Of a stretch of DNA of 64,000 nucleotides, positions 5,437 to 57,180 are shown in pieces. Where the stretch lies: assembly GCA_016194325.1 (NCBI GenBank), contig JACQBS010000105.1:9419-73418 (forward strand). The letters run 5' to 3'. Numbering within the stretch: position 1 is the stretch's first letter; each line of letters opens with the position of its first letter. This stretch comes from Nitrospinota bacterium. GTDB lineage: Bacteria > Nitrospinota > Nitrospinia > UBA9942. The translations under genes and the position numbers were made by a program. The notes beneath the pieces are model-generated. The model had not been told where the DNA came from. It searched no databases and worked only from the letters and a program-made list of their open reading frames with translations.

Positions 5437-8277
5437 TTACACATCTATTCTTATACTAAAGTCCTCTCTATATAATGTTAAGTTAACATTGTAATATGGG
5501 TCAGTATAAAGTATATGTTTCCATCTTTTTATCATATAGTCAGCCTCTGGATCGGGATCTATCCTATAGCCACGACTTGCAGATTCATAGTGATACAATA
5601 CGGCATATGGGGTATAGATAATCAGATAGCCTCTTTCTCTCAGCCTTAAGCATAAATCAATATCATTAAATGCTATCGGCAGATTTAATTCGTCAAAACC
5701 GCCAATCTCTTCAAAAACCTTTTTTCTTACCATCAAACAAGCCCCTGTTACTGCAGAATAATTTCTGATTGCATCGGCATGTCCAAAATAACTCTGATTT
5801 ATATTACTCTGCAAACCTTTAAACGCATGACCAGCAACACTCCCAATCCCAAGAATAACCCCTGCATGTTGAATGGAATCATTAGGAAAAAGGAGCTTAG
5901 ACCCAACAGCACCAACATCTTCTCTTTGAACATGCTCCACCATAGCAGAAAGCCACTCAGAAGATTTTACCTCCATGTCATTATTAAGAAAAAGTACAAT
6001 CTCCGAGTCAACTTTACTAACCGCATAATTATTAATAGCCGAAAAATTAAATTGCCTTGTATAATTCAATACTTTTATATTTTTGTTTTCAATCGCCAAC
6101 TTGTTTAGATATTCCATTGTATTTTTTTGAATGCTATTATTTTCTACAATTGCAATTTCGTAATTTTGATAGTCCGTTTTATTCAGAATGCTCTCAACAC
6201 AGTCCTTAAGCAACTCAACTTGGTCCTTTGTGGGTATTATGATACTAACTCGAGGGTTAGTTAATATTTCTCTTTTGACTCGAAATAGACTATTGTAAGT
6301 TCCTTTTTCTACGCTCCCCTTGATTGAGCGGCGTCTCAACGCATCTGTCAAGGCTTTTAAAGAAGCATTATCTGATGCCTTTGCTGTATATTCTGCAGCA
6401 GTAGAGCCTTTAATTACTCTCCAATGATAAAGTATCTTAGGGATGTGAAAAATATTATTTGTCTTTTCTGTTAATCTAAGAACCAGGTCGTAGTCCTGAC
6501 TACCATCAAACTCCTCTCTAAATCTACCTATTTCATCAATAATTTTTTTCCTATATACTCCGAAATGACATGAATACATCTGAGATAAAAAAAGGTCTGG
6601 GGACCAGTCGGGCTTAAAGAAGGGATTGTACCTTTTCCCTTCTGGAGTAATCTTGTCTTCATCACTGTAAATCATATCGGCATCTGGGTGTCCTTGTAAT
6701 AGATTTACAACCTCGTACAAGGCATTTGGAGCCAGTTCATCATCATTGTCAAGTAGTCCGATAAATTCACCATTGGCAAGAGAAATAGCTTCATTGGATG
6801 TTAATGATATCCCTTGATTCTGTAATAGATATTTTATCTTTATACGTGAGTCTTTATTTTTATAGCTCTCTAAAACCTCTTTCACATGACTTTTTGTCGA
6901 GCAATCATCTGCTATGCACAATTCCCAATTTAGATACATTTGATTCAATACAGAATCAATGGCTTTCTCAAGCCATATCTTTTCCACATTATAGACAGGC
7001 ATAATAATACTGATGGTGGGTTTGTATTTAAAACGTACAACCTTTTTTTGAACTTTCTTAATATCTTTAAGTGTCATAGAGTGCTTTTTAATCCATTGCT
7101 CATATTCATAAGCAACAAATTCTTTTGCGGTTTTATATCCGTGCTTGTATTTCAATTTAGCTTTTTTCAAAACAGCTCCAGGCCCTTCAGCAAGTAAAAG
7201 CTTTAACCCTTTGTTGCTCTTTCTCAAGATATTTAACACTCTCCATATTTTTGAATTTTGGATCTCGTCTAATATCTTGGTAAGGTTCTCAATATGAACC
7301 TCCTTTTCTTTTGCAGATTTTGTTAAATCTTGAATTTGAATCTGACTTCTCCTCTGAAATTCTTTCTCTCTTTCTTTTAATTCACTCAATTTTCTCTTTG
7401 TTTCCAGATTATCCAGATTAAAAAGTAGCTGCAGTTGAGAGAAATCAGCATTTTCCAGTGACAGATATTTATTTTTTTGGCTTCGTTCATGAAATATTGA
7501 ACCTATTCGATCTAAAGTATCATCTGACACATTTTTATCTATAACATAAACATAACGATAGGCTGGCTCTCTCTGGTCGCTTTCATAAAAGTTAAGATTA
7601 AAAAATCTATCAATCATGGCATGGAGGTTCAGGGACTCAGGAAGAGAGGCAATGTAAACCTTAATCAAATTCATAAGAAGCCAATTGTTTATGTAGCCAC
7701 TTGGTATTTTGCAATACTTCATTTGTTTAGTGGTAAGCCACGCTTCAATATCTTCAGACATGGGAAGACCATTATCCAGATGCTCCTTAAGCTGACGGTG
7801 AGCCCCTTTCATGATTTTGTATATATATTCAAAAAGTATTTTTTCAGCCAATACCGTATTCTCTGAATAAAGAGGCCCGCCCAGTACTACAAATCGACTA
7901 CTGATATTCAAAAGATTCTCAAGAAATATCTCTCTCATTTCTGATGGGATATGTTCCAGAACATCCTGGCAACTAATTATCTGAAAGGATCCTCCTTTGA
8001 AGGGGAGACTATCCCCGCTGCCTCTGATGTATTCAGACAGGAGGCATTTTGGAACATCTAACACCCATATTTTATCATCAGATAAAAAACTTTTAACAGG
8101 GAGCCATGGTTTTCCTTCCATAGTCATTGAGTGTCCTCCCACATCAAGAATTTTTAAAGTGTTATTGCCTATCTGGCTCTTTATAATTTCAATTATTTCT
8201 TTTAAAACACGATACCTTTGATATTGGTCAAATGGTATATTTAGCAATTCATCGCTATACATCAGACCCTCCTCCAT
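5437..8277 (-). CDS. Multidomain glycan-assembly protein: N-terminal class I SAM methyltransferase, coiled-coil segment, two tandem GT2 domains
   Basis: ILDVGGHS SAM-binding motif; a KELKEREKEFQRR coiled coil; two IIMPVYN/IIIPTKD GT2 N-terminal motifs each followed by DxD. Confidence 0.6.
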   Translation of the reverse strand: MEEGLMYSDELLNIPFDQYQRYRVLKEIIEIIKSQIGNNTLKILDVGGHSMTMEGKPWLPVKSFLSDDKIWVLDVPKCLLSEYIRGSGDSLPFKGGSFQIISCQDVLEHIPSEMREIFLENLLNISSRFVVLGGPLYSENTVLAEKILFEYIYKIMKGAHRQLKEHLDNGLPMSEDIEAWLTTKQMKYCKIPSGYINNWLLMNLIKVYIASLPESLNLHAMIDRFFNLNFYESDQREPAYRYVYVIDKNVSDDTLDRIGSIFHERSQKNKYLSLENADFSQLQLLFNLDNLETKRKLSELKEREKEFQRRSQIQIQDLTKSAKEKEVHIENLTKILDEIQNSKIWRVLNILRKSNKGLKLLLAEGPGAVLKKAKLKYKHGYKTAKEFVAYEYEQWIKKHSMTLKDIKKVQKKVVRFKYKPTISIIMPVYNVEKIWLEKAIDSVLNQMYLNWELCIADDCSTKSHVKEVLESYKNKDSRIKIKYLLQNQGISLTSNEAISLANGEFIGLLDNDDELAPNALYEVVNLLQGHPDADMIYSDEDKITPEGKRYNPFFKPDWSPDLFLSQMYSCHFGVYRKKIIDEIGRFREEFDGSQDYDLVLRLTEKTNNIFHIPKILYHWRVIKGSTAAEYTAKASDNASLKALTDALRRRSIKGSVEKGTYNSLFRVKREILTNPRVSIIIPTKDQVELLKDCVESILNKTDYQNYEIAIVENNSIQKNTMEYLNKLAIENKNIKVLNYTRQFNFSAINNYAVSKVDSEIVLFLNNDMEVKSSEWLSAMVEHVQREDVGAVGSKLLFPNDSIQHAGVILGIGSVAGHAFKGLQSNINQSYFGHADAIRNYSAVTGACLMVRKKVFEEIGGFDELNLPIAFNDIDLCLRLRERGYLIIYTPYAVLYHYESASRGYRIDPDPEADYMIKRWKHILYTDPYYNVNLTLYREDFSIRIDV

Positions 8278-22580: not shown

Positions 22581-22942
22581 GATGATGTGAGGTGAACTTT
22601 AACTATGGTTTCCGTTTAAGAAAAGAGGGATAAAAAGCAGCCTGTCTCCTTTTTTTAGATGCTAAAGGGTTATGGAAAAAGACATACAGAGAATATGTCA
22701 GAAATTGAGCAGACTTTTGACCTCTTTAGTTCCTTTGGGATATTGAGTATGAACACTTATCCTCTTTTCTGTCTATCACTCAAAAAGTAATGATAGTTGT
22801 TCATTACAAAAAAAAACCAGACAAATTCCAGAATAGCATTAGACAAATTACAGGATAACCCTTTACAATTTTACAAGCGTGTTTTACTCTGCCTTGGCGT
22901 GTTTTAGCGTGTTTTTTGTCATATTATTGACATCAAAAGGCT

Positions 22943-23710
22943 TCAAAAGTTCATTATGAGTAATTCTGTAACTTTTTGTTTTTTATCTACCCCTCCAATA
23001 TTATACATTGTTTCAACTTTTTTGATATTAAAATCCTTATATAGTTCTCTTATCTCTTTCGTATTATTAATAGACATTATAAATTTACCTGAGATTGACT
23101 TCAAGATGTCTCTTATCTTAACGAAGTCATCCTTATAGAATATGCCTTTTCCATAATATCCTTCACAGTCATAATAGGGAGGATCGAGGTAAAAAAATGT
23201 GTGAGCCTTATCGTATCGTTCTATCAATTTTTCATAATGCATATTCTCAATAAATACCCTTACAAGTCTGAGATGGGCAGCAGAAAGTTCCTCCTCTATT
23301 CTTAATAAATTAAGTCTTGATGGTCTAACTGTTGAGCTTGTAAATGTTGGATTATCTACTCTGCTGGCATATCCTGTCTTCAAGAGATAATAGAACCTTA
23401 CTGCCCTCTGTATGTCTGTCAGTGTGCTGGGATTTTCATCTTTAAATCTTTGAAACTCATCTCTTGCAACCAGTATCCACCTAAAAAATCTTATAAATTC
23501 GTCTAAGTGGTGTTTTACTACCCGATAAAGAGTCACAAGGTTTTTATTGATGTCATTTAGAACTTCAACATCAGACTCGTCTTTTTTAAACAGTAGCCAT
23601 GCTGCACCTGCGAATACTTCACAGTAACAGGTATGTTTTGGAATTAGCGGAATAATCTTATTTGAAATGATAGATTTCCCTCCTAAATACGATAAAAAAC
23701 TTTTTCTCAT
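22943..23710 (-). CDS. Dam-family (D12 class) N6-adenine DNA methyltransferase
   Basis: N-terminal FLSYLGGK, motif I EVFAGAAW, C-terminal DPPY catalytic motif. Start set at MRKSF (23710), which avoids overlap with the RT. Confidence 0.75.
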   Translation of the reverse strand: MRKSFLSYLGGKSIISNKIIPLIPKHTCYCEVFAGAAWLLFKKDESDVEVLNDINKNLVTLYRVVKHHLDEFIRFFRWILVARDEFQRFKDENPSTLTDIQRAVRFYYLLKTGYASRVDNPTFTSSTVRPSRLNLLRIEEELSAAHLRLVRVFIENMHYEKLIERYDKAHTFFYLDPPYYDCEGYYGKGIFYKDDFVKIRDILKSISGKFIMSINNTKEIRELYKDFNIKKVETMYNIGGVDKKQKVTELLIMNF

Positions 23711-23723
23711 TGTATCTCCCTCC

Positions 23724-24746
23724 CTAATTTTTGCTAAATGTAATACCACCAAAAACTCTTTTCACTACATTATAGCTATTAGAATGTTTTACATGCCCAA
23801 GCCATGAGGTTATAGATTGTTTAATCTTTTCGAGTGTTATTTTATTGTGTTTATATAACTCCACAAACTTTTTGAGTTTTCTCCGCATTCTTATGAAGCT
23901 CCTTTTTCTTAAGAGCCTATGAGTTGGCCATGTGCGATATCCTACAAAGTCAACCCCATGAGAAATAGGAAAAACAGAGGTTTTATAATTTAGCTGAAGC
24001 CGTAATGTGTGCATTAAAAAGTCACCTATTTCTACTTTCCATAAGTGCAGTTGCTTTTTATTGCTGTGTAACAACACAAAGTCGTCCATATACCTGATAT
24101 AAAATTTAACCTGCAGTTTCTCCTTTACGAAATGGTCAAGCTCATTCAGATACACATTTGCAAATAACTGACTTGTCAGATTTCCTATTGGGAGTCCCTT
24201 ATCTCCATCCGCACTATCTACAATCTCATCAATAAGCATTAGTGTCCTTTTGCATCTTATTGTCCTTCTAATTATGTTCTTCAATGCCTCATGATCTACG
24301 GAGGGAAAGAATTTCGATATATCGGCTTTCAGACAATAAACGGTATTCCATTTTCGTTGCGCCCTCCTTAGAAACTCTACAAGCCTATTAGATGATGCAT
24401 GTGTACCTTTTTTACTTCTACACGCATAAGAGTCATTAATAAACTTCTTTTCAAGAAGTGGCTCTATAACAGTGCATAAGGCATGGTGGATAACTCTATC
24501 CCTAAATGGTAATGCCGAAATCACTCTTCTCTTTGGTTCATGTATAACGAACTTCCTGTATTGCCCTGTTTTGTAACCACCATTCATCAATTCACTCTGT
24601 AAAACAAACAATTCCTCCTCTATATTGCTACTGAATTCTAACACCTCCTTCTTATATCGCTTACAGCGTCTCGCTTTGAGGTATGCATTATAGAGATTGT
24701 CAAAGGTATATATCTTTTCAAACAAGGCATTATATGTTTTAGGCAT
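23724..24746 (-). CDS. Diversity-generating retroelement (DGR) reverse transcriptase
   Basis: RT motifs 1-7 including YMDD (YIRYMDDFVLL) and the DGR-specific motif 4 LPIGNLTSQLFANVYL. 340 aa, no maturase or endonuclease domain; lies next to the TR. Confidence 0.85.
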   Translation of the reverse strand: MPKTYNALFEKIYTFDNLYNAYLKARRCKRYKKEVLEFSSNIEEELFVLQSELMNGGYKTGQYRKFVIHEPKRRVISALPFRDRVIHHALCTVIEPLLEKKFINDSYACRSKKGTHASSNRLVEFLRRAQRKWNTVYCLKADISKFFPSVDHEALKNIIRRTIRCKRTLMLIDEIVDSADGDKGLPIGNLTSQLFANVYLNELDHFVKEKLQVKFYIRYMDDFVLLHSNKKQLHLWKVEIGDFLMHTLRLQLNYKTSVFPISHGVDFVGYRTWPTHRLLRKRSFIRMRRKLKKFVELYKHNKITLEKIKQSITSWLGHVKHSNSYNVVKRVFGGITFSKN

Positions 24747-24758
24747 ACAATCTCCTTG

Positions 24759-24950
24759 TCATTTAAATTTTCTTTTGATTGATACATCTAAATCAGTAAC
24801 TCCTCCCTGATTCAAATTAATCTCCAAGATCAATTTGCCTGTGAAATTTTTAACATCCTCTTTTATAACTTTATATTTATTCATATCCTCAATACATCTA
24901 ATCAAAGTTTTCTTCCATTCTTTTTCTTTACCCTCCATTGTGTCCTCCAA
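24759..24950 (-). CDS. Small hypothetical protein between the TR spacer and the RT
   Basis: 63-aa ORF only; no recognizable motif. Confidence 0.2.
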   Translation of the reverse strand: MEDTMEGKEKEWKKTLIRCIEDMNKYKVIKEDVKNFTGKLILEINLNQGGVTDLDVSIKRKFK

Positions 24951-24959
24951 AAATAAAAA

Positions 24960-25255
24960 AACCCAAACTAAAGCCGAAAACGGCTTTTGGGGTCTGATAG
25001 CTCTCCGATAGAAGTTATCAGCTAACCAACCGTTAACAGCTTTACTTTGGGTTTAATAGCTCTCCACAATGGAGTTATTAACTAACCAACTAAATTATGC
25101 GGCCAGTGCAATTTTATGGACTTCCCCTACTCATTGCACATAGCCTCTACAATTTTTGCCTCTGGCTTTCGCCTCGGCAGGGATTAAGAGCCTGACTGTA
25201 TTGCTGTCACTGGTGATAACTCCGTAGAGTCATCATCTCTTAAAAGTTTTAACAC
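24960..25255 (-). ncRNA. Putative structured DGR RNA segment downstream of the TR (duplicated about 47-nt hairpin units plus an AAAGCCGAAAACGGCTTT hairpin)
   Basis: Two about 80 percent identical units at 24989-25036 and 25049-25095, each internally palindromic; hairpin at 24971-24988. Confidence 0.35.
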
Positions 25256-25367
25256 AGTCACAGGCGAAGCGAGCGCCAATATTCGTATTCACATTCCACG
25301 GATAGTTGTTCAGATTGACGCACCGAGAACCAGCGATTACGCCATTATTCCAGTTGCCGCCAGCAAT
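25256..25367 (-). repeat. DGR template repeat (TR), 112 bp
   Basis: Matches 25767-25878 at 104 of 112 positions. All 8 mismatches lie at adenines of this copy on the minus/coding strand. It is non-coding and sits directly after the avd stop. Confidence 0.85.
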
Positions 25368-25371
25368 GCTC

Positions 25372-25704
25372 TTAACCCACACTTTTAATCCATCCTCCCA
25401 ATAACCTCCCTATTTCCGCTATAAGCTTACCGCTATGCTCATAACTCTTATGTGATAAATGTTTCCTGTCATGAGCAAACCTTATCAAAAACTTTAATTC
25501 CTCTAATTTTACATCAATGTCATACATCAGGGGCTTTTTATTCCTACTTTTATTAGTTCTGATAATTCCCCTTGCAATATCAAGCACACAGTTTTTAATA
25601 TGTGTGCATAGGACAAACTTTTCATACTTTGGAAATTTATCAACGATAGGGAAAAAATATAATGCAAAGTCATAAACCTTCTGATATATAATCAAATTTT
25701 CCAT
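25372..25704 (-). CDS. avd: Accessory variability determinant (Avd-like) small basic helical protein
   Basis: 110 aa, basic, predicted helical bundle; canonical position between the target gene and the TR. Confidence 0.6.
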   Translation of the reverse strand: MENLIIYQKVYDFALYFFPIVDKFPKYEKFVLCTHIKNCVLDIARGIIRTNKSRNKKPLMYDIDVKLEELKFLIRFAHDRKHLSHKSYEHSGKLIAEIGRLLGGWIKSVG

Positions 25705-25758
25705 GTAATCATTATAGTATATCCCCCCCTATATTCAAAAAATATTTCAGAGAACAGA

Positions 25759-26841
25759 TTACAGAGAGTCACAGGCGAAGCGAGCGCCAATAGTCGTATT
25801 CACATTCCACGGATAGTAGTACAGATTGACGCACCGAGAACCAGCGATAACGCCACTACTCCAGTCGCCGCCAGCAAGCAACATAACCAACTCAATGTTC
25901 GAATACATATATAGCTGACCCGCATTCATGCCCGGCATTACATCATAATAATTCCACCCGACAGTACCATCTGGTCTTATTATGAAGCAGTCAATCCACT
26001 CCCACACATTACCAACGCAGTCTACAACATTGAGAAGACTAATTGCATTAGCTACATAACCTGTGTTTTGTCTACCCGTGTTAGTTGTTGCAGACCACGC
26101 ATTTACATTATCTCCATTATTACCCTGTGGTGAGCCGTGGGCTATCTGCAGCCATTCTGCATGGGTCGGAAGCCTTTTTCCCGACCTGCGGGCCATTTCA
26201 ATAAAATTGTAACCAGACAATCCTTCTGTCCCTGTCAGTGGTATAGCATTATAGATACTTTTAGCTGTGCCGGTAAGTATGGGAGAACCGCTTCCTGCTG
26301 CGAAAGTAATCGCCTCATCAACTGAGGAGAGGTAAATATCCACCCATACACCGTTACCCAAATATACCATACCCTCCGGGCTGCAGCGTGGTTTATGGCA
26401 TAAATCCCAGACAGAATTTGGAACCACTACGCCGCTTGTTACATCTGCGACTGTAATACTATTTCTTTTCCTCCCATAGTGGAATCCGCCGATTCTACGG
26501 GAGTTCGTGGTGGTATATCCACTCGGAGCAGTAGAGTTTGCTGATATGAGCAATAATCCGTTGTCAGTGCCATTATCACAGAGATATATATAGTAGTTTA
26601 TGCCGAGGGTTAATACACCTGTATCAAGTGTCGTTACTTCGGTGTCTGTTGCAAACAGATATGCTTTCCGTGTAGAGCCACTTATTAATGAGAGGATAGT
26701 GTCTGCTTTGACTACGACCCCATTCCCTGTTGCGTTTGCCTCAAGATATTTATTTGAGATTCCCGGTCTTATATCAAGCGGGCGCATTAAAAAGACATCA
26801 TTTATTGGATATGCTGGATCATTTTTCCATATTAGTGACAT
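25759..26841 (-). CDS. DGR target protein: phage receptor-binding / tail-fiber-associated protein with C-terminal C-type-lectin (FGE-like) fold carrying the VR
   Basis: C-terminal HAEW...GNVWEWI...GGDW...RCVNLYYYPWNVNTTIGARFACD matches the FGE/CLec DGR-VR scaffold. The VR occupies the last 40 codons. Confidence 0.8.
   Translation of the reverse strand: MSLIWKNDPAYPINDVFLMRPLDIRPGISNKYLEANATGNGVVVKADTILSLISGSTRKAYLFATDTEVTTLDTGVLTLGINYYIYLCDNGTDNGLLLISANSTAPSGYTTTNSRRIGGFHYGRKRNSITVADVTSGVVVPNSVWDLCHKPRCSPEGMVYLGNGVWVDIYLSSVDEAITFAAGSGSPILTGTAKSIYNAIPLTGTEGLSGYNFIEMARRSGKRLPTHAEWLQIAHGSPQGNNGDNVNAWSATTNTGRQNTGYVANAISLLNVVDCVGNVWEWIDCFIIRPDGTVGWNYYDVMPGMNAGQLYMYSNIELVMLLAGGDWSSGVIAGSRCVNLYYYPWNVNTTIGARFACDSL
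25767..25878 (-). repeat. DGR variable repeat (VR) with GC-rich IMH at its 3' end
   Basis: Partner of the TR. The substitutions convert TR AAC/AAT (Asn) codons to TAC and similar. The GGCGCTCGCTTCGCC segment is conserved in both copies; the flanking 3' sequences differ (IMH vs IMH*). Confidence 0.85.
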
Positions 26842-26853
26842 GGTTTCCTCCTT

Positions 26854-27171
26854 TTATAATTGGTTAATAAGGTTTTCGAGTTCTGCTTTTGTAAATCCCA
26901 TTTGCAGAAATCTTGCATTTGGATTATCCACAAACTCAAAACAGATATATTTTGTCTGCCCTGCAGTATCTATTTCTGTTATAACCTTTTCATTCGAGAG
27001 TGGTATGTATGTAGATGCCACCTCCGATTTAAAACTCCAGATTTTCTCATCCGAAAACAAATCCTGCAGCTTCTTTTTAAGCTCTGCACTGTCAATCTCT
27101 CCAGTAAGTGCAAGGGCATGACAGGTCTCAACATCTACCCTTGTGTTTAAAACGCTTGGTATTCCTCTCAT
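26854..27171 (-). CDS. Hypothetical phage protein between the tail fiber and the DGR target
   Basis: ORF only. Confidence 0.3.
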   Translation of the reverse strand: MRGIPSVLNTRVDVETCHALALTGEIDSAELKKKLQDLFSDEKIWSFKSEVASTYIPLSNEKVITEIDTAGQTKYICFEFVDNPNARFLQMGFTKAELENLINQL

Positions 27172-27184
27172 AGTTTTACCTCCT

Positions 27185-28111
27185 TTAAATTAAAATTACT
27201 GCCTTGCCTGTTTGAGGCGTGGCAAAATATATTTTAAGATTATTGCTGTCAACTTTTCTTGTTTTTGTATATGAAATTTCTGTGTAATCTAACACAGTCC
27301 CCGATATTATTCCGTCTCCGCAGTAACTCCCATCTCCACAGTAACTCCCGTCTCCGCAAAAACCACTTGCGTAATATGTCTCTGCTGCGGATTCTGAGAA
27401 GACTTTTACTACCGGGATATTCGGAGTATTGAGGTTGTGTATTATGCTCCATTTGTCTAATGCTGTATCTTGAATATATTCTATCCGTTTTGAAATTCCT
27501 GAATGAGCATTGGGATCACCGTTGTGGACATTAATAGCTGAGCCTATTTGAGCAGGGATATTATGCTCGGTTGTATTTTGTTTATGAGAGTCAAGGGAGT
27601 TCCTTATGTCCTGGTGAGATGCAGCCGATACATCATGATTCTGAATATCCTTTTTAGTTGCAATCACAACTGTATCTGATATAACGGCAGTTACATTCTG
27701 TGTATTCGCTACAACAGTGAAAATATCGGTAACATTCTCAATAAGGGTTACGCCGGCAACAGGTATGTAATCAGCCTTATTCCCTGCGGAGGTCACGGCA
27801 TAGAGGATTTCTCCTAAATCAGGGTCATTTGCAAATATCCCTATTTCACGAATGAAAAAGCCTGCGGTCAGCCCTGTATTCGTCAGGACAAATCTGAGTT
27901 TTGATGTCCCGTCACCAGCAACTTCCAGAGATTGAATTGCCAGACTCTTTTTCTCGCTTATAAGTGCGGTTAAAATTGTTGGATCCTGTCCAGTGGTCCA
28001 CGCTCCATCTCCTATTCCAATCCGTGTGAATTGCAGTGTAACACCTGTCTGTGCCTTTGCCAACAGGTTTCTCCCTCTATTTGTTAATATGGTGCCGCTG
28101 AAATCACCCAT
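27185..28111 (-). CDS. Phage tail fiber protein (putative) with an internal (GDGSYC)3 repeat
   Basis: Position after the baseplate gpI/gpJ genes; Gly/Thr-rich; tandem repeat. Confidence 0.45.
   Translation of the reverse strand: MGDFSGTILTNRGRNLLAKAQTGVTLQFTRIGIGDGAWTTGQDPTILTALISEKKSLAIQSLEVAGDGTSKLRFVLTNTGLTAGFFIREIGIFANDPDLGEILYAVTSAGNKADYIPVAGVTLIENVTDIFTVVANTQNVTAVISDTVVIATKKDIQNHDVSAASHQDIRNSLDSHKQNTTEHNIPAQIGSAINVHNGDPNAHSGISKRIEYIQDTALDKWSIIHNLNTPNIPVVKVFSESAAETYYASGFCGDGSYCGDGSYCGDGIISGTVLDYTEISYTKTRKVDSNNLKIYFATPQTGKAVILI
27313..27360. repeat. 18-bp tandem repeat (about 2.7 copies) inside the tail fiber gene encoding GDGSYC units
   Basis: Read directly: CGTCTCCGCAGTAACTCC / CATCTCCACAGTAACTCC / CGTCTCCGCAAAAACC. 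Confidence 0.7.
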
Positions 28112-28797
28112 GATTTTGCCTCCCTAACGACCCCTGCCATAGAATAGGCAGATTGACTCACATTTACTATTGGATTATGAACACCGATTGAATTTGTCAT
28201 TGCAATCCTCTGAGCTAATGCTGTATAGATATTTATACCTTCTACATCAGTTCTTAGATGCAGACCTATTGTGCAATACTTTCCGTCCTTAGCAGCAATG
28301 CCGCAGTAAACCGAAGCCGTATACTCTCTATGGATACCAATCGCCTCCAACCATGACCGAACATTTTTATATTCGCCAATGAGGTCTACTAATTTTTTAT
28401 ATGTCTCTTCATCTTGAATAACGGATTTTAGTAATACTTTAAATTTGTATGCGGTTCCTGAATACTGAAACCACTCCTCTATTTCAGCATTGAGATTCAA
28501 TATCTCAAAAACTTTTTTAATTGCCCACGGAGTTCCTTTGTATCGATGCAGCTCGATAGCGCCTTTTATTAAACCCCTCTTTTCAGCTTCTGTCTTTGCA
28601 AGCTTCCATCCCTCAACATGAAATTGCCAGGCAAGGAAGGGGAGAATATTCGCAGGCACATTATCAATGAGATAAACAAGGACTGCATTAAGTTCAGATT
28701 CTACTGAAAAGACCTTATCCGCAGCCTCGCACAGCCCTTCAAGGTTTTTATCTCCCTGTAAGTTTACAGGCAGTAAATCTTTTGTTTTGTTAGCCAT
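28084..28797 (-). CDS. Phage tail protein I (P2 gpI-like baseplate protein)
   Basis: LPFLAWQFHVEGW and HRYKGTPWA resemble Tail_P2_I conserved blocks; synteny with gpJ. Confidence 0.5.
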   Translation of the reverse strand: MANKTKDLLPVNLQGDKNLEGLCEAADKVFSVESELNAVLVYLIDNVPANILPFLAWQFHVEGWKLAKTEAEKRGLIKGAIELHRYKGTPWAIKKVFEILNLNAEIEEWFQYSGTAYKFKVLLKSVIQDEETYKKLVDLIGEYKNVRSWLEAIGIHREYTASVYCGIAAKDGKYCTIGLHLRTDVEGINIYTALAQRIAMTNSIGVHNPIVNVSQSAYSMAGVVREAKSWVISAAPY

Positions 28798-29917
28798 CTA
28801 CACTCCCTGCAACAGTTACATTTATACCGGAGCATATCGCTACTTCATTATGTGCAATCAAAATATATGCAGGCTGATTAACCACTGCCTTATAGACACC
28901 TGCTATCTTCTGGAGTATCCCTACTATTTGCTCTGGAACCACATCAGTCCCAAGTTTTTCCTTTACAGATTTTGTATAGCTCTCAAGGCTTTCATTTGCC
29001 TTTGAGAGAATTACATCTGAAAGCATCGATGACGATTTATAGATATAAAGCTGGACATCTATGGTGTAATTAACAGTCACAGGTGATTCAATAATCACGG
29101 AATCAGTTAAGGGTCTTACCTTCTCGTCACTCAATTTTTCAGAGACAAGATTGAGCATGTTTGTATCTGGCAACTGCCCATTTTTTAGTAGTAGTGCAAC
29201 CTTCACCGTGCCAGGCTGTGGACTCCACACGGAAACATCAACGATATCTTGATGTGCTGTCTTTGCCCAATACTCATAAGCACCAGATGACCCCGCATTA
29301 CTGAACATCTCAGGTGCAATCTGTATACGCATCCGCAAGTGGTCATTACTTTCAATATCAACTCCGCCATAAGTCAGGCTTGCATTTTCAACCTTCTGCA
29401 CATAGGGGAGAGGATTAATAAGCTGATTTATATCTCCAGCAAGATAACCGCTGCCTATTTCACCAGCATCAACGGATGTAGCCGGGACATCAATATAAGT
29501 GCTGCCAACATTCGCAGTGACATCCTCTGATGTTGCAAAAGCAGCCTTATTGTCTTTACTCATAACTTTTGTTCCTGTGGGAATAAGCAGAGGAGATGTT
29601 AAAGCGGCTTCAAAAGTAAAGCGAAGGGTTGTAATTGCTGCTGCTACAGGAAGTCTTGTTACTCCAAGCAAAGCCCCCAGATGATCCAGCATTTCTCCAT
29701 TTGCATAAACAAGGAGATTCTGCTTTGCAACCTCATTGATGTTTATCCTTAAGAGATTCTCTCGATAGGCAAAGGTGGCGAGGAGAAGGGACTCAATCTG
29801 CCCTTTTGAAAGGGGAATTCCAACGATCCCTTCATAGGACTTTACAATCTCCCTGTATTGTTGATTCCAGTTTACAGGTATAAATTCTGGCTCTGGCAAT
29901 GTCTTTAAATCTATCAT
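28790..29917 (-). CDS. Baseplate J-like protein (P2 gpJ / gp47 family)
   Basis: Size and position between the gpW-like and gpI-like genes. Confidence 0.5.
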   Translation of the reverse strand: MIDLKTLPEPEFIPVNWNQQYREIVKSYEGIVGIPLSKGQIESLLLATFAYRENLLRININEVAKQNLLVYANGEMLDHLGALLGVTRLPVAAAITTLRFTFEAALTSPLLIPTGTKVMSKDNKAAFATSEDVTANVGSTYIDVPATSVDAGEIGSGYLAGDINQLINPLPYVQKVENASLTYGGVDIESNDHLRMRIQIAPEMFSNAGSSGAYEYWAKTAHQDIVDVSVWSPQPGTVKVALLLKNGQLPDTNMLNLVSEKLSDEKVRPLTDSVIIESPVTVNYTIDVQLYIYKSSSMLSDVILSKANESLESYTKSVKEKLGTDVVPEQIVGILQKIAGVYKAVVNQPAYILIAHNEVAICSGINVTVAGSVDG

Positions 29918-32969: not shown

Positions 32970-33352
32970 CAGTTATATTCCTTCAGACTCACCTCAAACT
33001 CAATCACTTTGGGATTCCCCAGACCATCCGTTTCTCTCCATGTTTCCGAAACACTCTCAATAACAAACTCTCCAAATATCTCGTCACCAAACACAAATAC
33101 AAGGGATTCTCCCTTTTCTGCCTCTTTCTCGAGTTTGTGTATCTCCTCTAATGGATTACAAAAATAATCACCAAATCTGCCACTGAAAGAGACTGTATCA
33201 AGTTGCCTCCCCATAGACTGAAGTCTTGACTTGCCTTTTAATATTTCATGCTCTGCATATTTCCATGTACGCGAACGCTTTAGTTCGTTAATGTTATTTA
33301 TATGATCTTCCGAAATCTCAAAGGCTATGTCTCCAAGCACACCGATATTCAC
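32969..33352 (-). CDS. Phage tail protein U-like (gpU)
   Basis: 127 aa located between the tape measure and gpX genes. Confidence 0.4.
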   Translation of the reverse strand: MNIGVLGDIAFEISEDHINNINELKRSRTWKYAEHEILKGKSRLQSMGRQLDTVSFSGRFGDYFCNPLEEIHKLEKEAEKGESLVFVFGDEIFGEFVIESVSETWRETDGLGNPKVIEFEVSLKEYN

Positions 33353-35775
33353 CAGCCAATCCTCCCTTCTCTTTTGAAATACTGTTCAATCACCCTTTTA
33401 ATAGCATCTTCAGTGGCTGAGGCAGTTTGTAACGCAACCTCCTTCACAACAGTTCTGTCAACATTACCGCCGAATGTAAGATGCTGGGTAATATTGATTG
33501 GAGGTATAGAGCGTGCAGCAGCCGTTCTTTCTGGCATTGCCCCTTTTCCTGTCATTCCTGCGAAGGCAGGAATCCATGTCGGCTGCGCCATTGCCTTCAC
33601 AGGCTCGAGCATTTGTCTGACAGGCTGTGTAATTGGCTGTAGAACCTGCCTTGTGGCATTTATTACCTTTGACATTGCAGTTATTGCCGGTGCTGGCTTC
33701 ATTGTCTCTGCAATGGTTTCTATAATCCTTATCTTATGCAAATCTTTGAAAGGTCCCTCTCTGGCAGGACTGAAAGGTAGGAAATTGCGTATTTTCTGAG
33801 TTATGTTTTTTACTGCCTCAACTGGCTTATTTACCATAGACATCATCCCTTCATGCAGTGTCTGGATTACTTTCTTACCTGCATCAAAGAGATTCATACC
33901 TGTAATAAACTTTAAAAGCTTATTCAATGCCATTATGGGTGCTGTGATGGGGTTCACCCAGAGAAAGACACTCAAAACCTTCTGCCAGTTCCCCTTCATC
34001 CAGAGCCATGCAACTGAAATCCCCTTGCCTACCTTATCCCAATGTTTCCATAATAGATAGCCACTGGCTATAAGTGCAGTGATGCCGAGTATAATCCATC
34101 CGATTGGTGTTGTAACGAGTGCAATACTCATAGCCCTGATACCTGATATTGCAGTAATACTGAAAACCCTTATACCTATTGCAGCAGCCCTAAGACCAGA
34201 GAGGAGTCCCGAAAACGATGTCCTCGCCATTGTTGCAATCCACGTCCTCATGGCCCCGATGTTTTCAAGCATCCTGTATCTTGTCGTCATAAGCCAATAT
34301 TGCATCGCCTTATAGAATCCACCATGATACTGAATATAATTCATAAGTTTCTGCATCCCTATAAGTCGCCATATCTCGGCTCTCTTCAGTCTTATCCAGG
34401 GGATTGCAATTTTAATATAGTTTGTAAACATCCTCACAGAGCCAATACCATTAGAGAGTAATTTCGTTGCCATCCCTAAAAGCAGCAGTCCACCTCCAAA
34501 GACTGTCAATACACCACCTGTCACGGCAACTGTTACACCAATTGCTCCGGCAAGCCTCTGGTGATTCTTCACCCATATATCTATCCTTCCAAATAGGTTA
34601 TTGAGCCGTTCAAATACACTGCCAAGCCTTAAGCTCTGGCTTGTAACAGCCCCTATACTTGCAACTGCATTTTGCACTGTCCCTGTCAATGTATCCCACC
34701 GCATCTTCGTGGTTCCCATTATTGCGTCAATCTTTTTCTGCATATCTGCCTGCTGCTGCATCCGTTTAAGCATCTCGTTATAACCTGTAAGTCCTTTATC
34801 CACAAGCAATGAAAGTGGTCTCGCAGCCTCAACACTGAAAAGCTTTTCAAGGACAATCAGCTTTTCCTGTGGATTGAGTGCCTTTAATTTTTCCAACTCC
34901 TTTATCATTCCCTCGATCCCAACAAATGCACCTTTATCTGTAAAGAAATTCAGTTTAATCCCTTTAGGATCAAGTATCGGTGCAACCAGTTTATGTATCG
35001 CCTTTCTATCCATTTTACTGGTCAGCAGTGCCATCTTTGAAAGTGCATTGGCAAAGTTAGTCCCTGCTGTGCTTCCCTCAATAGAATTTGATGCCATAAC
35101 GCCAATAACAGCAGATATTTTTTTAGCATCCTCCAGTCCTTGAATATTAAGTGACTTTAAAGAACTCCCCATATATTTGAATGAATAGGCAAGGTCTCCA
35201 ATTTCAACACCTGAGGCGAATTTCAATCTTTGTAAAGTATCCATGAAGGAAACTGCCTCTTTATCTGCAACACCCATTGATTCCTGAAACTTTGCCACAT
35301 GGGTTGCAGCCTCTGCAAAGGGAAGTTTCATAAGCACTGCAAATTTAGCAGCCGCCTCACCAACCCCGCCAAGGATATACTTTGTCTGGACACCCTGTTC
35401 TCTTAAGGCAATGAACATCTCGACCATATCCTTTGTTGAGCCTGGCAAAGCAGTGCCGAGTCTATCTGCAAGACGATACATCTCCTCAAGGTCTTTGCCT
35501 GTCTTGCCTGAAGTATCCATCATGGTGGTTTTCAAACGCGTCTGAGCTTCCTCAAGGTCGGCAAATACAGAAATCGTCTTCTGGACAGGACCCAGCATCA
35601 TCAATCCTGCGGCCGTTGACTGTCTGCCCAACCGAACCATATTTTCCGATACCTGCTGCAATTTCGCCTGCATCCTTCCAAAATCGGTGATGGCATTATT
35701 GGTCATGCGATTGAACACGCCCGAGGCATGATCAACAGCAGAGAGCATCATTCCTATAGTAAAAGCATTAGCCAT
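33349..35775 (-). CDS. Tail tape measure protein
   Basis: 808 aa, largely helical with central hydrophobic segments; lies downstream of the tube and chaperone genes. Confidence 0.7.
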   Translation of the reverse strand: MANAFTIGMMLSAVDHASGVFNRMTNNAITDFGRMQAKLQQVSENMVRLGRQSTAAGLMMLGPVQKTISVFADLEEAQTRLKTTMMDTSGKTGKDLEEMYRLADRLGTALPGSTKDMVEMFIALREQGVQTKYILGGVGEAAAKFAVLMKLPFAEAATHVAKFQESMGVADKEAVSFMDTLQRLKFASGVEIGDLAYSFKYMGSSLKSLNIQGLEDAKKISAVIGVMASNSIEGSTAGTNFANALSKMALLTSKMDRKAIHKLVAPILDPKGIKLNFFTDKGAFVGIEGMIKELEKLKALNPQEKLIVLEKLFSVEAARPLSLLVDKGLTGYNEMLKRMQQQADMQKKIDAIMGTTKMRWDTLTGTVQNAVASIGAVTSQSLRLGSVFERLNNLFGRIDIWVKNHQRLAGAIGVTVAVTGGVLTVFGGGLLLLGMATKLLSNGIGSVRMFTNYIKIAIPWIRLKRAEIWRLIGMQKLMNYIQYHGGFYKAMQYWLMTTRYRMLENIGAMRTWIATMARTSFSGLLSGLRAAAIGIRVFSITAISGIRAMSIALVTTPIGWIILGITALIASGYLLWKHWDKVGKGISVAWLWMKGNWQKVLSVFLWVNPITAPIMALNKLLKFITGMNLFDAGKKVIQTLHEGMMSMVNKPVEAVKNITQKIRNFLPFSPAREGPFKDLHKIRIIETIAETMKPAPAITAMSKVINATRQVLQPITQPVRQMLEPVKAMAQPTWIPAFAGMTGKGAMPERTAAARSIPPINITQHLTFGGNVDRTVVKEVALQTASATEDAIKRVIEQYFKREGRIGW

Positions 35776-36950: not shown

Positions 36951-38174
36951 TTATTCACCTCCAAAAAGATTTTTAAAGTAGTTGGCATCCACCTCGAGGA
37001 TATGCTCGATGGTCTCTGCAGGCGGCGGTGCAAGATAGGTGATGTAGAATCTGATTATCCCATTCAGCAAGTCTGTGGTGGGATTGTCCTCTTTCCTGAA
37101 ATATACCTTTGCACCGATTAAAAAACTCCTGCCCACAAGCCCATTGAGCCAGATATTCACTGTGCTGACGACTGTCTCTATGAGCCTCTTATTCATAGGG
37201 TCATCAACCTTCTGCCATGAGAGAAGGACAAGGTTATTCTCAATCCAGTTAGCCATCCTTCTGCATGGGATAAATGTATCCTTTATGTCAGTAACCTCGG
37301 GGAATGCAGCAGTCCTGTTACCCCAGAGCTTCCAGCCTGTAGAGAATCTGAATATCGTTGCAATACCCTGCTCATTAAGATAATTTGCCTCCTGAATGGT
37401 GAGAATCTTTACAGGGCCGTCAATCCGTAATTCCTTGTTTGACGGAGACTCATAAGGAACACCTGTGTTCTTCTCGTCCACCTTTGCAGTAAGTCCTGCT
37501 GCATGAGCTGATAGCCAATGCGTATCAGAACCGTATTTCGCCTGTGGCCAGAATATGGCAGCATGTGCAGAGCCAAAGGTTGCCTTGAATGTCAGGGCAT
37601 CCGCAGGCTTCTCCACAGTAGAGGGGACATCAATATAAGCAATCGCCTTGAAGTGGTTACTGATCTTTTCTGCTTTTGCAATCATGGCATTGGCAACGGA
37701 GGTGTTATGAGAGTATCCAGGCGCAAGAACTAATCCAATCACCTTTCCGAAACTTGTGAAGGATTCTTCAATAAGCTCCAGTCCTGTCCTTTTCCCTGTT
37801 GTAGCATCCACACCGCCGATGATGTCCGTTGCCGTCACAAGTGACGGATCTGGATTATCCTGAGTATCCTTATGCACCGCAGGGTCAAAGACATTCACAA
37901 AGATTACAGGACTCATACCGTAGAGCGTGAAATAAACCTTTGCGAATTGTGAGAGTGAGTAATTGCCCTCACTCTGCCCCTGTGGAACCTCTCCGAAGGT
38001 TATGACAAATTCCTTATAATTAAATATAATCTTTGCCTGATTAACAGGCTTATCACCTGTAAGACTCTGCACAGGTGCAGCGCCAACGATAAATGGCAAT
38101 GCACTGTCGCATGTCCTTACACCTAAAACCTTTGTATCCAGCTCCTGAATATATACACCATGTTGAAATGCCAT
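36951..38174 (-). CDS. Contractile tail sheath protein
   Basis: 407 aa; sheath-tube order as in P2/Mu. Confidence 0.7.
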   Translation of the reverse strand: MAFQHGVYIQELDTKVLGVRTCDSALPFIVGAAPVQSLTGDKPVNQAKIIFNYKEFVITFGEVPQGQSEGNYSLSQFAKVYFTLYGMSPVIFVNVFDPAVHKDTQDNPDPSLVTATDIIGGVDATTGKRTGLELIEESFTSFGKVIGLVLAPGYSHNTSVANAMIAKAEKISNHFKAIAYIDVPSTVEKPADALTFKATFGSAHAAIFWPQAKYGSDTHWLSAHAAGLTAKVDEKNTGVPYESPSNKELRIDGPVKILTIQEANYLNEQGIATIFRFSTGWKLWGNRTAAFPEVTDIKDTFIPCRRMANWIENNLVLLSWQKVDDPMNKRLIETVVSTVNIWLNGLVGRSFLIGAKVYFRKEDNPTTDLLNGIIRFYITYLAPPPAETIEHILEVDANYFKNLFGGE

Positions 38175-40162: not shown

Positions 40163-41149
40163 CTATATTACCTGGCTCCAGCATATTCCCTTTGGAATTG
40201 ACACGGGTAAAGGTTTGCTCTTACCCACAACCTCTATACCTGATGGATTCTTCTTTCTTTCAGGCGATGCATAGAATGGCATGGGGAGCAGCCCTGCATC
40301 TATATCATCCAATGCACAATAGTAGAGTGAGAATGGCGCATCGAGGGCAACCGCACAGAGCTTGTTTGATGGAATCACATTGCTAATTGTCCCATCAGAT
40401 GGGTTCTCATATACCCCTGCAAAAAGCTCGATGGTGAATCCTGCTATAGTTATACCCTTCTCTGTAATCTGTGCATTGATGGTTCCCCTGTCAGAAAGGG
40501 TAATTACCTTATTTGCAACTGCTACAAATACATCTGATCCGACAAGATAGGCTATGTCCGAGCCATATCCGTTCTGGTTTAAGAGCTTGTTTATCTCAAT
40601 AATGTCCTTCAATATCTCTCCGAGTGTCTTATCCGCTGCATTCCAGAGTTTTGTCGGGACAAATTCAAGGGTTGCACCGAAATCAACCGAATATATGTCA
40701 TAGCCGCCCGATGTTTTCATTGGATATGAGATAGAGCCTGCAAGACTCTGACCTGCTATTGCCTCTGTGGTCTTTCTTATAGACTGTCTTAAGTCATCAA
40801 TCTTGCCTGCGACGTACTGCTCGATACCTTTATCATCGAGGAGCTTCAAATTGTTAAGCTCCACCCCGCCAATAAAGGTAGAAACCTCAACAGGCTGAGG
40901 CTCGAGATAGGTTATCTGCCTCTCCCCTGTGTTAATGGAAACTGCAGGACTCCCACGCCGCACAACAGGGACATTCTTGATAACCTTACTGATTACATCT
41001 ATCCCCAGCACAGGCAGCGGATGCTGCCTCCTCTTGCTCTCAGGGTATATCCTATCAAGCACAGGGGATGTAAGCAGTGGAAGCTGCTGTAGGCTCTCTG
41101 CTACTGCCTTTGGTGTGAAATACTTTCTTAAATCAATTTCAAACGGCAT
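40163..41149 (-). CDS. Major capsid protein (Mu gpT-like)
   Basis: 328 aa; follows the protease/scaffold gene as in the Mu head module. Confidence 0.55.
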   Translation of the reverse strand: MPFEIDLRKYFTPKAVAESLQQLPLLTSPVLDRIYPESKRRQHPLPVLGIDVISKVIKNVPVVRRGSPAVSINTGERQITYLEPQPVEVSTFIGGVELNNLKLLDDKGIEQYVAGKIDDLRQSIRKTTEAIAGQSLAGSISYPMKTSGGYDIYSVDFGATLEFVPTKLWNAADKTLGEILKDIIEINKLLNQNGYGSDIAYLVGSDVFVAVANKVITLSDRGTINAQITEKGITIAGFTIELFAGVYENPSDGTISNVIPSNKLCAVALDAPFSLYYCALDDIDAGLLPMPFYASPERKKNPSGIEVVGKSKPLPVSIPKGICWSQVI

Positions 41150-44936: not shown

Positions 44937-44976
44937 AAATTCCTTAATTGAAAATTAGAAATTGGAAATTGGAAAT
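44937..44976. repeat. AATTCCTTAATTGAAAATTAGAAATTGGAAATTGGAAATT element in the terL-portal junction
   Basis: Shares an exact 13-mer and the GAAATT heptad run with 30793-30825. Confidence 0.55.
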
Positions 44977-46502
44977 TCCCTTCCATATCCCTTAAATATT
45001 GTCTTTGTATCCCTGTGAACACCGAGTGGTAAAACAATCGGCTCTGGTTTCTTATCGACAATTAATTCTGACACACACATCTCGATTGCATCCGGTATGT
45101 CATCATGTCCCTTCGGAAAGCTCTCGAATTGTTCAAGGCATAGCGTAAGCCCTTCCCTGAATAGCAGTATTCCAGCCTCCACAAGGGGAGAGAGCTTGCT
45201 TATTCTGAACTGCTTATTTAAGGTCTGTTTAACACAGACTATAGGCAATATAATTCCTTCTCTGAGCGCCTCCCTTAAAACCTGATTTTTGTATATCTCC
45301 TGAAATACCTGAATCTCAAAGACAATCTTTTCAGGTTTCCAGATTCTAAATTTTTCGATGATGAGCCTTATTAACTGCATATCCGAAATTTTCTCGCCGA
45401 CTGCATCGAGGACAGAAAGCATATTGCTTTCGCTTCGCCCTACCACTGCAATGGCTGAATAATCACCGGCAGCCTTGCCTGTTGCAGGCTCCACAGACAT
45501 AATCCTTTTAAATTTGCTCCAGTCAATATCAGTAAGCTTGAAAGTTTTGAACCATTCCTTTCTAAACTTCTTTTCCTCATCAGGCATTGGCTTATTTCGC
45601 CACTCTGTGGCAAAGTTCGCAGAGCCAATATCAATCTCCTTTTCCTTGAGTTCTTCAAGTGTCCATTTCTCGGACCACAACGGATTTCCATCAGGTAGAT
45701 ATACATCAAACTTGAGGGCTGCCCATTTCTGTAATTTCTCTCCAGTTGCAATTTCTTTAAGCAAGCTGCTGGGCAAATCATCTGGATGCATTATCGTATT
45801 GACTATAATAATGAGGGCATTTTTTCCCAAGTTCATTATGACCCTCTTAAACCAGCGATACAGTTTTTCTCGTGATATCTTGCTTTCAACCTCATCCTCT
45901 TTGAGAAGATCATCACACACGATATGCGTGGGTCTACGATACTTATCTTTAATCCCCCTGATTCCCTCTCTTGCACCTAATGCAGCAATAGCATTACCAT
46001 TTTTAAGGACGACCTTATTTGCTCCCCATTTTTTACCCCTTTCCTTTTGAAAACCAAAGTCAGAAAGTATTCGTTCGTTGTTTTCAAGCTCAAGTTTTAT
46101 AGATGCAAGGAATTCGGTAGCCCTTGTCCTGTTTACCCCGACAATTACAGGGAATACATCTTCTTTTGTCAGGGCAAGCCACAGCGGAAAGGCTTGCGAC
46201 ATCCTTGTTGATTTACCGTGCTCACGAGGCTCAATATCGAGGAGACCTTCAAGTGTTTCGACTTCCTTGATATACACATGGTCTTCAGGGTAAATAAACC
46301 TTTGTAGTTTTTTGATGATGACTGAGGTGATGCTTCGAGAGTTTATGACATCTACAATTGCCCTCTGATATTCCCCAAATTCAGTAGTAAACGCCTCTGA
46401 CAAATAATAGGAACAGAAAAAGGCAAAATCTTTCTCCGCCCTCTTTTTCCTTTTCTCCTTTTCTATATCAACATCTCCAATAAGCTCTTTCAGTATGTTC
46501 AT
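44955..46502 (-). CDS. Terminase large subunit
   Basis: 515 aa with an N-terminal ATPase and a C-terminal nuclease-type domain; upstream of the portal gene. Confidence 0.7.
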   Translation of the reverse strand: MNILKELIGDVDIEKEKRKKRAEKDFAFFCSYYLSEAFTTEFGEYQRAIVDVINSRSITSVIIKKLQRFIYPEDHVYIKEVETLEGLLDIEPREHGKSTRMSQAFPLWLALTKEDVFPVIVGVNRTRATEFLASIKLELENNERILSDFGFQKERGKKWGANKVVLKNGNAIAALGAREGIRGIKDKYRRPTHIVCDDLLKEDEVESKISREKLYRWFKRVIMNLGKNALIIIVNTIMHPDDLPSSLLKEIATGEKLQKWAALKFDVYLPDGNPLWSEKWTLEELKEKEIDIGSANFATEWRNKPMPDEEKKFRKEWFKTFKLTDIDWSKFKRIMSVEPATGKAAGDYSAIAVVGRSESNMLSVLDAVGEKISDMQLIRLIIEKFRIWKPEKIVFEIQVFQEIYKNQVLREALREGIILPIVCVKQTLNKQFRISKLSPLVEAGILLFREGLTLCLEQFESFPKGHDDIPDAIEMCVSELIVDKKPEPIVLPLGVHRDTKTIFKGYGREFPISNF

Positions 46503-55747: not shown

Positions 55748-55980
55748 TTAAGTATTCTCGGCCGCTCCCTTAGCTCCCTATCTATAAGGCAGTAAAGTGG
55801 GCTCCTTCCTCTTTTCCCAATCTGTTTAATGAACCCTTCCTTCTTATAAATACACATAATCAGCTTTACATAGAGCCTCTTAATCCCTGTAACCTGTGCA
55901 ATTTCATTGACTGTCCAGATTGGGGAATACCTCCACGCCCTCCATATCCTGTCTGCTTTTTCACCATATTTCTCCCTCAT
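55744..55980 (-). CDS. Small winged-HTH-like protein
   Basis: 78 aa, basic. Confidence 0.3.
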   Translation of the reverse strand: MREKYGEKADRIWRAWRYSPIWTVNEIAQVTGIKRLYVKLIMCIYKKEGFIKQIGKRGRSPLYCLIDRELRERPRILK

Positions 55981-56910: not shown

Positions 56911-57180
56911 TCACCCCCTTTCATTCATGGATTTGTAAAGCCTCTCAAACTCCTCAAATCTTACCTTCTCTGTCTCGTCCATCCCTGCCTCATACCGCCT
57001 CATAAACTCCTCATCTGCCTCAGTGAGATGGAATCCACCAAGATGATCCTCAAGCAGCGACTGATAGCGGTCAACCTCATATTTATATGTCCCCCTCTTT
57101 GCCCTGAGTTTTATGGGTCTTTGTTCTGTTGACTCTGCCACAATTCTTTCAGTTTCTTTTTTTAACTCCTCATCCGTCAT
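56911..57180 (-). CDS. Small acidic hypothetical protein
   Basis: ORF only. Confidence 0.25.
   Translation of the reverse strand: MTDEELKKETERIVAESTEQRPIKLRAKRGTYKYEVDRYQSLLEDHLGGFHLTEADEEFMRRYEAGMDETEKVRFEEFERLYKSMNERG

Follow-up and report, generated by a model that had tools for sequence, protein, structure and literature searches.

A putative Mtd-family receptor-binding protein diversified by a retroelement in a Mu-like prophage of a Nitrospinae-labelled lineage

What is the role of a gene that public databases name as an enzyme, when it stands next to the tail genes of a prophage and a reverse transcriptase? The gene lies at 25759..26841 on the minus strand of a 64,000-nt stretch of contig JACQBS010000105.1 (assembly GCA_016194325.1), all of which we analysed and refer to as the window. 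The identical protein in NCBI belongs to a metagenome-assembled genome (MAG) labelled Nitrospinae and bears the name "SUMF1/EgtB/PvdO family nonheme iron enzyme." An initial annotation of the window, made from its letters, had placed an open reading frame (ORF) at exactly this position and read its product as the target of a diversity-generating retroelement (DGR), a tail receptor-binding protein with a diversified tip. We reach a similar view, to which we assign a probability of roughly 0.88: the gene encodes a receptor-binding protein of the major tropism determinant (Mtd) family, from a Mu-like, contractile-tailed temperate phage in the Nitrospinae-labelled MAG, with tropism switching by a DGR. 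The window holds all sequence components of a DGR plus an Mtd-type target, in the order mtd, avd, template repeat (TR), structured spacer, small ORF and reverse transcriptase (RT). The central features are as follows.

25759..26841, minus strand: Mtd-family DGR variable (target) protein, an ORF of 360 aa
25767..25877, minus strand: variable repeat (VR), the 111-nt repeat at the end of the target gene, encoding aa 322-358
25372..25704, minus strand: avd (accessory variability determinant), 110 aa, between VR and TR
25256..25366, minus strand: TR, with 24 adenines including nine AAY codons, beginning 6 nt past the avd stop codon
23724..24746, minus strand: DGR reverse transcriptase, 340 aa, downstream of TR (Pfam RVT_1, 8e-20)

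The target protein consists of a short N-terminal region, an Mtd beta-sandwich domain (aa 40-146) and a domain resembling C-type lectins (CLec) and formylglycine-generating enzyme (FGE), which spans approximately aa 150-360. Residues 40-146 match the Pfam family PF21916, "Mtd second domain" (E 3e-24, 85.9 bits vs. a cut-off of 24.6), and residues 214-356 match PF03781, FGE-sulfatase (E 4e-7, 30.3 bits vs. 23.3), although the latter match is partial and covers profile positions 102-254 of 255, the C-terminal 60%. When the PDB was searched with phmmer, six sequences of Mtd from phage BPP-1 (1yu0-1yu4, 2iou) ranked at the top with E 2e-25 to 3.6e-27, aligning target aa 37-360 to Mtd 69-378, and the next sequence matches were to EgtB at E ~0.01. 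Identity to the Mtd protein encoded in the BPP-1 genome is 30% (BLASTP, E 2e-31), and the target also matches PHROG 11262, "tail protein," at 1.4e-63. Because this homology extends across aa 37-360, the protein looks Mtd orthologue-like, which is more than a shared CLec scaffold would imply.

Predicted structure points the same way. An AlphaFold2 model built on 58 homologues has a mean predicted local distance difference test score (pLDDT) of 87.5 and a predicted template modelling score (pTM) of 0.87. In a Foldseek search of the PDB with this predicted model, five Mtd crystal structures rank first (E 7e-23 to 1e-20), with template modelling (TM) scores of 0.71-0.73 when normalised to the query and 0.68-0.70 when normalised to the target structure; the best match is 1yu0 (E 6.7e-23, TM 0.73 and 0.70, respectively). 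CalU17, FGE, EgtB and TaqVP follow far below Mtd, at E 6e-5 and weaker and TM 0.25-0.35. By sequence and predicted fold, then, homology to Mtd covers the beta-sandwich as well as the CLec domain of the target. The initial annotation had likened the protein to Mtd through a common scaffold, and the direct homology in sequence, PF21916 domain and predicted fold is stronger than that. It had also proposed structure prediction as its check, and the predicted fold is indeed CLec/FGE-like; the peptides it quoted are found at aa 227-237 (HAEWLQIAHGS), 277-285 (GNVWEWIDC) and 324-358 (GGDWSS...ARFACD). The resemblance to FGE that it pointed out is likewise borne out by PF03781 and Foldseek, but the domain extends over ~210 aa (~150-360), not the last 110.

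The designation as a DGR target rests on a repeat pair with adenine-specific differences. A direct repeat of 139 nt joins positions 25753-25891 to 25242-25380, and within it the TR/VR core of 111 nt contains seven mismatches, all seven of them at TR adenines (three A>G, three A>T and one A>C). With 24 adenines among 111 nt, the hypergeometric probability of such a bias is ~1e-5. No third copy of the repeat and no second VR occur in the window. The repeat has a GC-rich 3' end (GGCGCTCGCTTCGCCTGTGACT), beyond which the VR and TR flanks diverge; VR is followed by a specific flank, CTCTGTAATCTG, that includes the stop codon and may form a boundary like an initiation of mutagenic homing (IMH) site. 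This flank is kept beside the VRs of three related loci (L002, L003 and L004).

An independent assembly, a 7013-nt Logan contig from SRR12113409 (L001), encodes an identical protein. The contig stops 25 nt after the stop codon, right past VR, which fits an assembly break at the VR/TR repeat; on its own this contig end is no evidence of VR heterogeneity.

Which residues would the retroelement vary? Read in frame, TR has nine AAY codons, at aa 326, 328, 329, 339, 341, 342, 346, 348 and 350. Its other adenine-containing codons are ATC 332, TAT 343, ACG 349, ATT 351, GAC 358 and the silent GTA 331. Adenine mutagenesis could thus change up to 14 codons, the nine AAY codons to 15 residues each and the other five to four each, for a theoretical diversity of ~3.9e13 protein and 2.8e14 DNA variants; no stop codons are created, and the Gly, Trp, Arg, Pro and Cys residues of the scaffold are unaffected. 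Published values for BPP-1 are 1e13 protein and 1e14 DNA variants (PMC5758913).

For a comparison at the codon level, TR and VR of BPP-1 were extracted from its annotated genome. The last 40 residues of the target and of Mtd form an ungapped alignment (subtracting 18 from the Mtd position gives the query position), and 11 of the 12 variable residues of Mtd (344, 346, 347, 350, 357, 359, 360, 364, 366, 368 and 369) correspond to A-containing codons of the TR. All nine AAY codons line up with AAC codons of BPP-1, and between the variable positions the two proteins have scaffold residues in common (GG, W, GSR, P, G-A-R, C-D and L). Homologues vary at the same places: in the alignment of 58 sequences, entropy is 3.2 bits at AAY columns vs. 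1.0 bits at other VR columns, and eight of the nine AAY columns, together with position 332, rank within the top eleven of the entire protein for variability. AAY mutagenesis typically gives residue spectra like those at the AAY columns (N, D, S, G, Y, H, A, T and others). Crystal structures of Mtd show the variable residues at the base of the trimer, where they form a receptor-binding site open to solvent (PMC2408619, PMC5758913), and by positional homology the VR residues of the target are probably exposed as well.

The two proteins of the retroelement are recognizable too. Avd matches the NCBIfam equivalog NF033474 (DivGenRetAVD) with 121.4 bits vs. a cut-off of 80 and the Pfam family bAvd (PF22296) at 1.4e-32, and it has 29% identity to BPP-1 Bbp7/Avd (E 5e-12). 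RT aligns over its full length with BPP-1 Brt at 40% identity (E 6e-83) and keeps the IGxLTSQLFANVY and YMDD motifs. Between TR and the RT gene lie the following features.

24950..25255, minus strand: structured TR-RT spacer RNA region (RNA fold z = -7.0)
25101-25257, minus strand: RT-14-like motif (Rfam RF02921, 38.5 bits, below the gathering score of 48.1)
24987-25090, minus strand: tandem duplication of ~60 nt
24970-24987, minus strand: terminator-like hairpin, just ahead of the small ORF and RT
24759..24950, minus strand: small ORF, listed as 63 aa, or 59 aa from an ATG at 24938 with a GGAGGA ribosome-binding site

In the DGR of Thermodesulfovibrio thiophilus (L004, 6543-6684), the corresponding stretch reaches 57.4 bits with RF02921; given matches at the same spot in both loci, this DGR clade apparently has RT-14 as its spacer RNA. 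Two elements that are consensus matches only, namely a promoter-like TTGAAT-16-TATAAT (25738-25711) and the terminator-like hairpin (24987-24970), would bracket an RNA composed of avd, TR and spacer.

By homology with BPP-1, such an avd-TR-spacer RNA would be transcribed, and a complex of RT and Avd would reverse-transcribe it, misincorporating nucleotides opposite template adenines. The cDNA would then replace VR, rewriting up to 14 codons while the scaffold residues are kept. The varied residues would make up the ligand-binding face at the distal end of a protein carried by the tail fibre, so that progeny phage could sample new host receptors, which is the tropism switching we propose. All elements of the initial annotation's receptor-binding reading that could be checked have held; receptor binding itself and the switching of tropism are likely by homology with Mtd.

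Related cassettes are numerous and behave alike. More than 1,391 proteins match the target at E<=1e-5, and 129 confirmed loci come from species-representative genomes of Nitrospirota, Desulfurellaceae, Lachnospiraceae, spirochaetes and others. The closest loci keep the synteny of fibre, ~105-aa ORF, Mtd, Avd, TR and RT, with TR/VR mismatches falling at adenines in 9 of 9, 12 of 12 and 11 of 15 cases. In at least 53 of 79 genomic loci, >=80% of the mismatches to a downstream TR are adenine-specific, and reverse polarity is not seen in any of the 79; homologues of Avd are present in 79 of 87 loci and of RT in 76 of 87. The closest relative (L002), whose Mtd is 79% identical, has a TR (6519-6611) that ends after 93 nt, with a D12 methyltransferase gene (6590-7297) directly after it and no RT. 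All nine differences between its VR and the TR remnant are at adenine positions, and it is presumably an RT-less, frozen derivative of the same cassette.

Is the surrounding element a phage? The entire gene block around the target is on the minus strand and includes the genes listed below.

26854..27171, minus strand: conserved 105-aa ORF, immediately upstream of the target gene
27185..28111, minus strand: tail fibre with an N-terminal tail-collar domain, 308 aa (PF12571, 9e-12; PHROG 7037, tail fiber, 7.5e-50)
28084..28797, minus strand: P2 gpI-like baseplate/tail protein (Pfam PF09684, Tail_P2_I, 2.6e-32)
28790..29917, minus strand: Baseplate J-like protein (Pfam PF04865, Baseplate_J, 9.4e-58)
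33349-35775, minus strand: tape measure
36951-38174, minus strand: tail sheath
40163-41149, minus strand: major head protein
44955-46502, minus strand: large terminase
55977-56852, minus strand: MuB-like protein
57177-59234, minus strand: MuA-like transposase
22943-23752, minus strand: D12-class N6-adenine DNA methyltransferase, its gene sharing 29 nt with the 3' end of the RT gene

Since sheath, tape measure, head, terminase and MuA-/MuB-like genes all belong to one block, we infer a Mu-like transposable myovirus prophage at ~22900-59800 (minus strand). The initial annotation had put the target immediately after the tail fibre and baseplate genes. It is downstream of Baseplate_J, Tail_P2_I and the fibre, but not directly, as the 105-aa ORF (26854-27171) intervenes. 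The DGR sits at the tail-gene end of the prophage, beyond which come only the D12 methyltransferase gene and then host-like genes.

Some further observations concern this end of the prophage and the fibre gene. The D12 methyltransferase is the last gene on the phage strand, in a place comparable to that of mom in phage Mu; by way of analogy, Mu carries an invertible host-range segment together with mom at the corresponding end of its genome. Close to where the prophage presumably ends and just beyond the methyltransferase gene, three copies of GCGTGTTTTA occur at 22877-22916 (plus strand), as GCGTGTTTT(A/T) within 40 nt. Near 59-61 kb there is no inverted counterpart of this triple repeat, and no tRNA occurs in the window. 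Within the fibre gene, an 18-nt tandem repeat (2.3 copies, 27315-27355) encodes (CGDGSY)x3 near the C-terminus of the protein, possibly a length-variable segment.

Several results weigh against a diversified, currently active Mtd. Searches of viral, genome and metagenome contig collections for the exact scaffold with TR A->N returned no VR variants, so evidence of ongoing diversification at the population level is lacking; the 90% cluster of the target has one member. The 54-nt gap between VR and avd has no GC-rich hairpin of the BPP-1 type (z = -1.6). A related locus (L003) has a GC-rich hairpin ~70 nt downstream, which may be a mere terminator. Model pLDDT drops to ~72-73 over aa 321-350, the hypervariable stretch. 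The N-terminal region is ~32 aa shorter than that of Mtd and does not align with it in sequence, so the mode of attachment to the fibre may differ. Prophage boundaries, sought through repeats and tRNA, were not identified. Finally, the closest relative has lost RT and the 3' part of TR, which means that decay does occur in this lineage.

Four of these points, namely the lack of population variants, the missing hairpin, the decayed relative and the unlocated prophage ends, would suit a fossil cassette, in which an Mtd homologue is retained while the DGR, or the prophage in its entirety, is no longer active and VR is now fixed. We regard this alternative as unlikely, though it survives better than the others. 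The ORFs of the cassette are all intact and keep their conserved motifs, the spacer RNA shows strong structure (z = -7.0, as above), and Mu-like genes for structure and transposition are present in full. In addition, the 111-nt TR/VR core is free of any non-adenine mismatch, which indicates little drift since the last homing event.

A second alternative is a domesticated element, a tailocin or contractile injection system, its diversified protein directed at competitors or other cells and not used for infection. The contractile-tail genes (sheath, baseplate J and gpI) would fit, and phage-tail-derived particles use exchangeable fibres. However, the same co-oriented block also encodes the large terminase subunit, the major head protein, the MuA-like transposase and the MuB-like protein, and these head, terminase and transposition genes argue for a complete transposable phage and not a headless particle, which makes this a very improbable reading.

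The name given by NCBI, together with the above-cut-off FGE-sulfatase match and the appearance of EgtB and FGE in the fold search, would make the target a SUMF1/EgtB/PvdO (FGE-like) enzyme, an interpretation that we reject as close to untenable because the profile match is partial, the NCBIfam EgtB score is 24.6 bits vs. a cut-off of 360, TM scores to FGE and EgtB structures are 0.25-0.31 vs. 0.73 to Mtd, what corresponds to the FGE C-terminus by homology is the hypermutated VR, and the genomic setting is a phage tail module, with Avd, TR and RT coming after the gene.

With an Mtd-family receptor-binding protein as the preferred reading, the public name is wrong for this protein family. Relatives in UniRef are called "phage major tropism determinant," and the name that the NCBI Prokaryotic Genome Annotation Pipeline (PGAP) attaches to the target and to its homologue in Chromohalobacter phage YPCBV-1 is a systematic misannotation of Mtd-type DGR targets. 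The class of target is itself established, as a 2017 survey already has a category "a" for phage-associated targets with an Mtd domain (PMC5758913). What the window adds is one more Mtd-type DGR target, well supported by the evidence, from a Mu-like prophage in a Nitrospinae-labelled lineage, with close relatives in Nitrospirota; both are environmental lineages with little-studied phage-host interactions.

Two small conserved ORFs flank the cassette, the second of them in its closest clade. The 105-aa ORF is found in the same position in nine relatives (L002-L005 and L008-L012) and in YPCBV-1 (27% identity to the homologue there), and in 15 of the 87 loci overall, a set that ranges from prophages of Nitrospirota to this Chromohalobacter phage. 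It has no match in Pfam, PHROG, NCBIfam or the PDB and no similarity to BPP-1 Bbp9, and BPP-1 has no counterpart of it. In myoviruses the protein may help Mtd as an adaptor or assembly factor, and as an adaptor or chaperone it might mount the Mtd trimer on the myovirus fibre. The small ORF between TR and RT is 59% identical to a 61-aa ORF in the same position in L003 and is kept in place in Nitrospirota loci (L003/L009, L008 and L010; 49-59% identity); Pfam, PHROG and NCBIfam gave no match. Its product may serve the DGR as an accessory protein peculiar to the clade, or the ORF may be no more than a phage gene; in the former case, the product might act with the RT-14-type spacer RNA as an extra accessory factor. 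That both ORFs encode uncharacterised functional partners of the cassette is a tentative suggestion, and we would not expect it to hold.

How does the locus compare with known systems? TvpA of Treponema denticola and TaqVP of Thermus also display a C-terminal VR on a CLec/FGE-type scaffold, as does the target. They are, however, cellular proteins, not phage-tail proteins, and are without the Mtd beta-sandwich domain. The match of the target model to TaqVP (5vf4) is weak in Foldseek (E 8e-4, TM ~0.33), and TvpA is not among the top 50 fold matches. Transposable phages with DGRs have been described before, for example Hankyphage, a temperate transposable phage of Bacteroides whose DGR diversifies a tail-associated protein (PMC6199706, PMC12135933). 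By its published description, Hankyphage resembles the prophage in combining transposition with a DGR, and its host phylum differs.

Chromohalobacter phage YPCBV-1 (OP380511) is the closest cultured-phage relative in the phage collection, with 42% identity over 78% of the query. It shares the Mu-type baseplate genes and has the 105-aa homologue directly upstream of its Mtd, followed by Avd and RT at the end of the genome; the gene order Mtd-Avd-RT is that of the window, and the "SUMF1/EgtB/PvdO" annotation is the same. YPCBV-1 differs in host phylum, in having no separate tail-collar fibre gene annotated upstream and in having no ~60-aa ORF annotated between Avd and RT.

BPP-1 is a short-tailed phage of the genus Rauchvirus, in contrast to the Mu-like myovirus with a P2-type baseplate in the window. 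Its VR is 134 nt long vs. 111 nt, and only the window has an extra ~60-aa ORF between TR and RT and a 105-aa ORF ahead of the target; the GC-rich hairpin that follows VR in BPP-1 was not found in the window. TR of BPP-1 is reported to contain 23 adenines vs. 24 here, with a diversity of ~1e13 vs. ~4e13 (PMC5758913). Gene order is the same in both (mtd-avd-TR-RT), and in both VR is at the extreme C-terminus of the target. Understanding of DGRs is thus unchanged by this locus, which has many hundreds of relatives and whose architecture, predicted fold and variable codon positions fit the BPP-1 paradigm.

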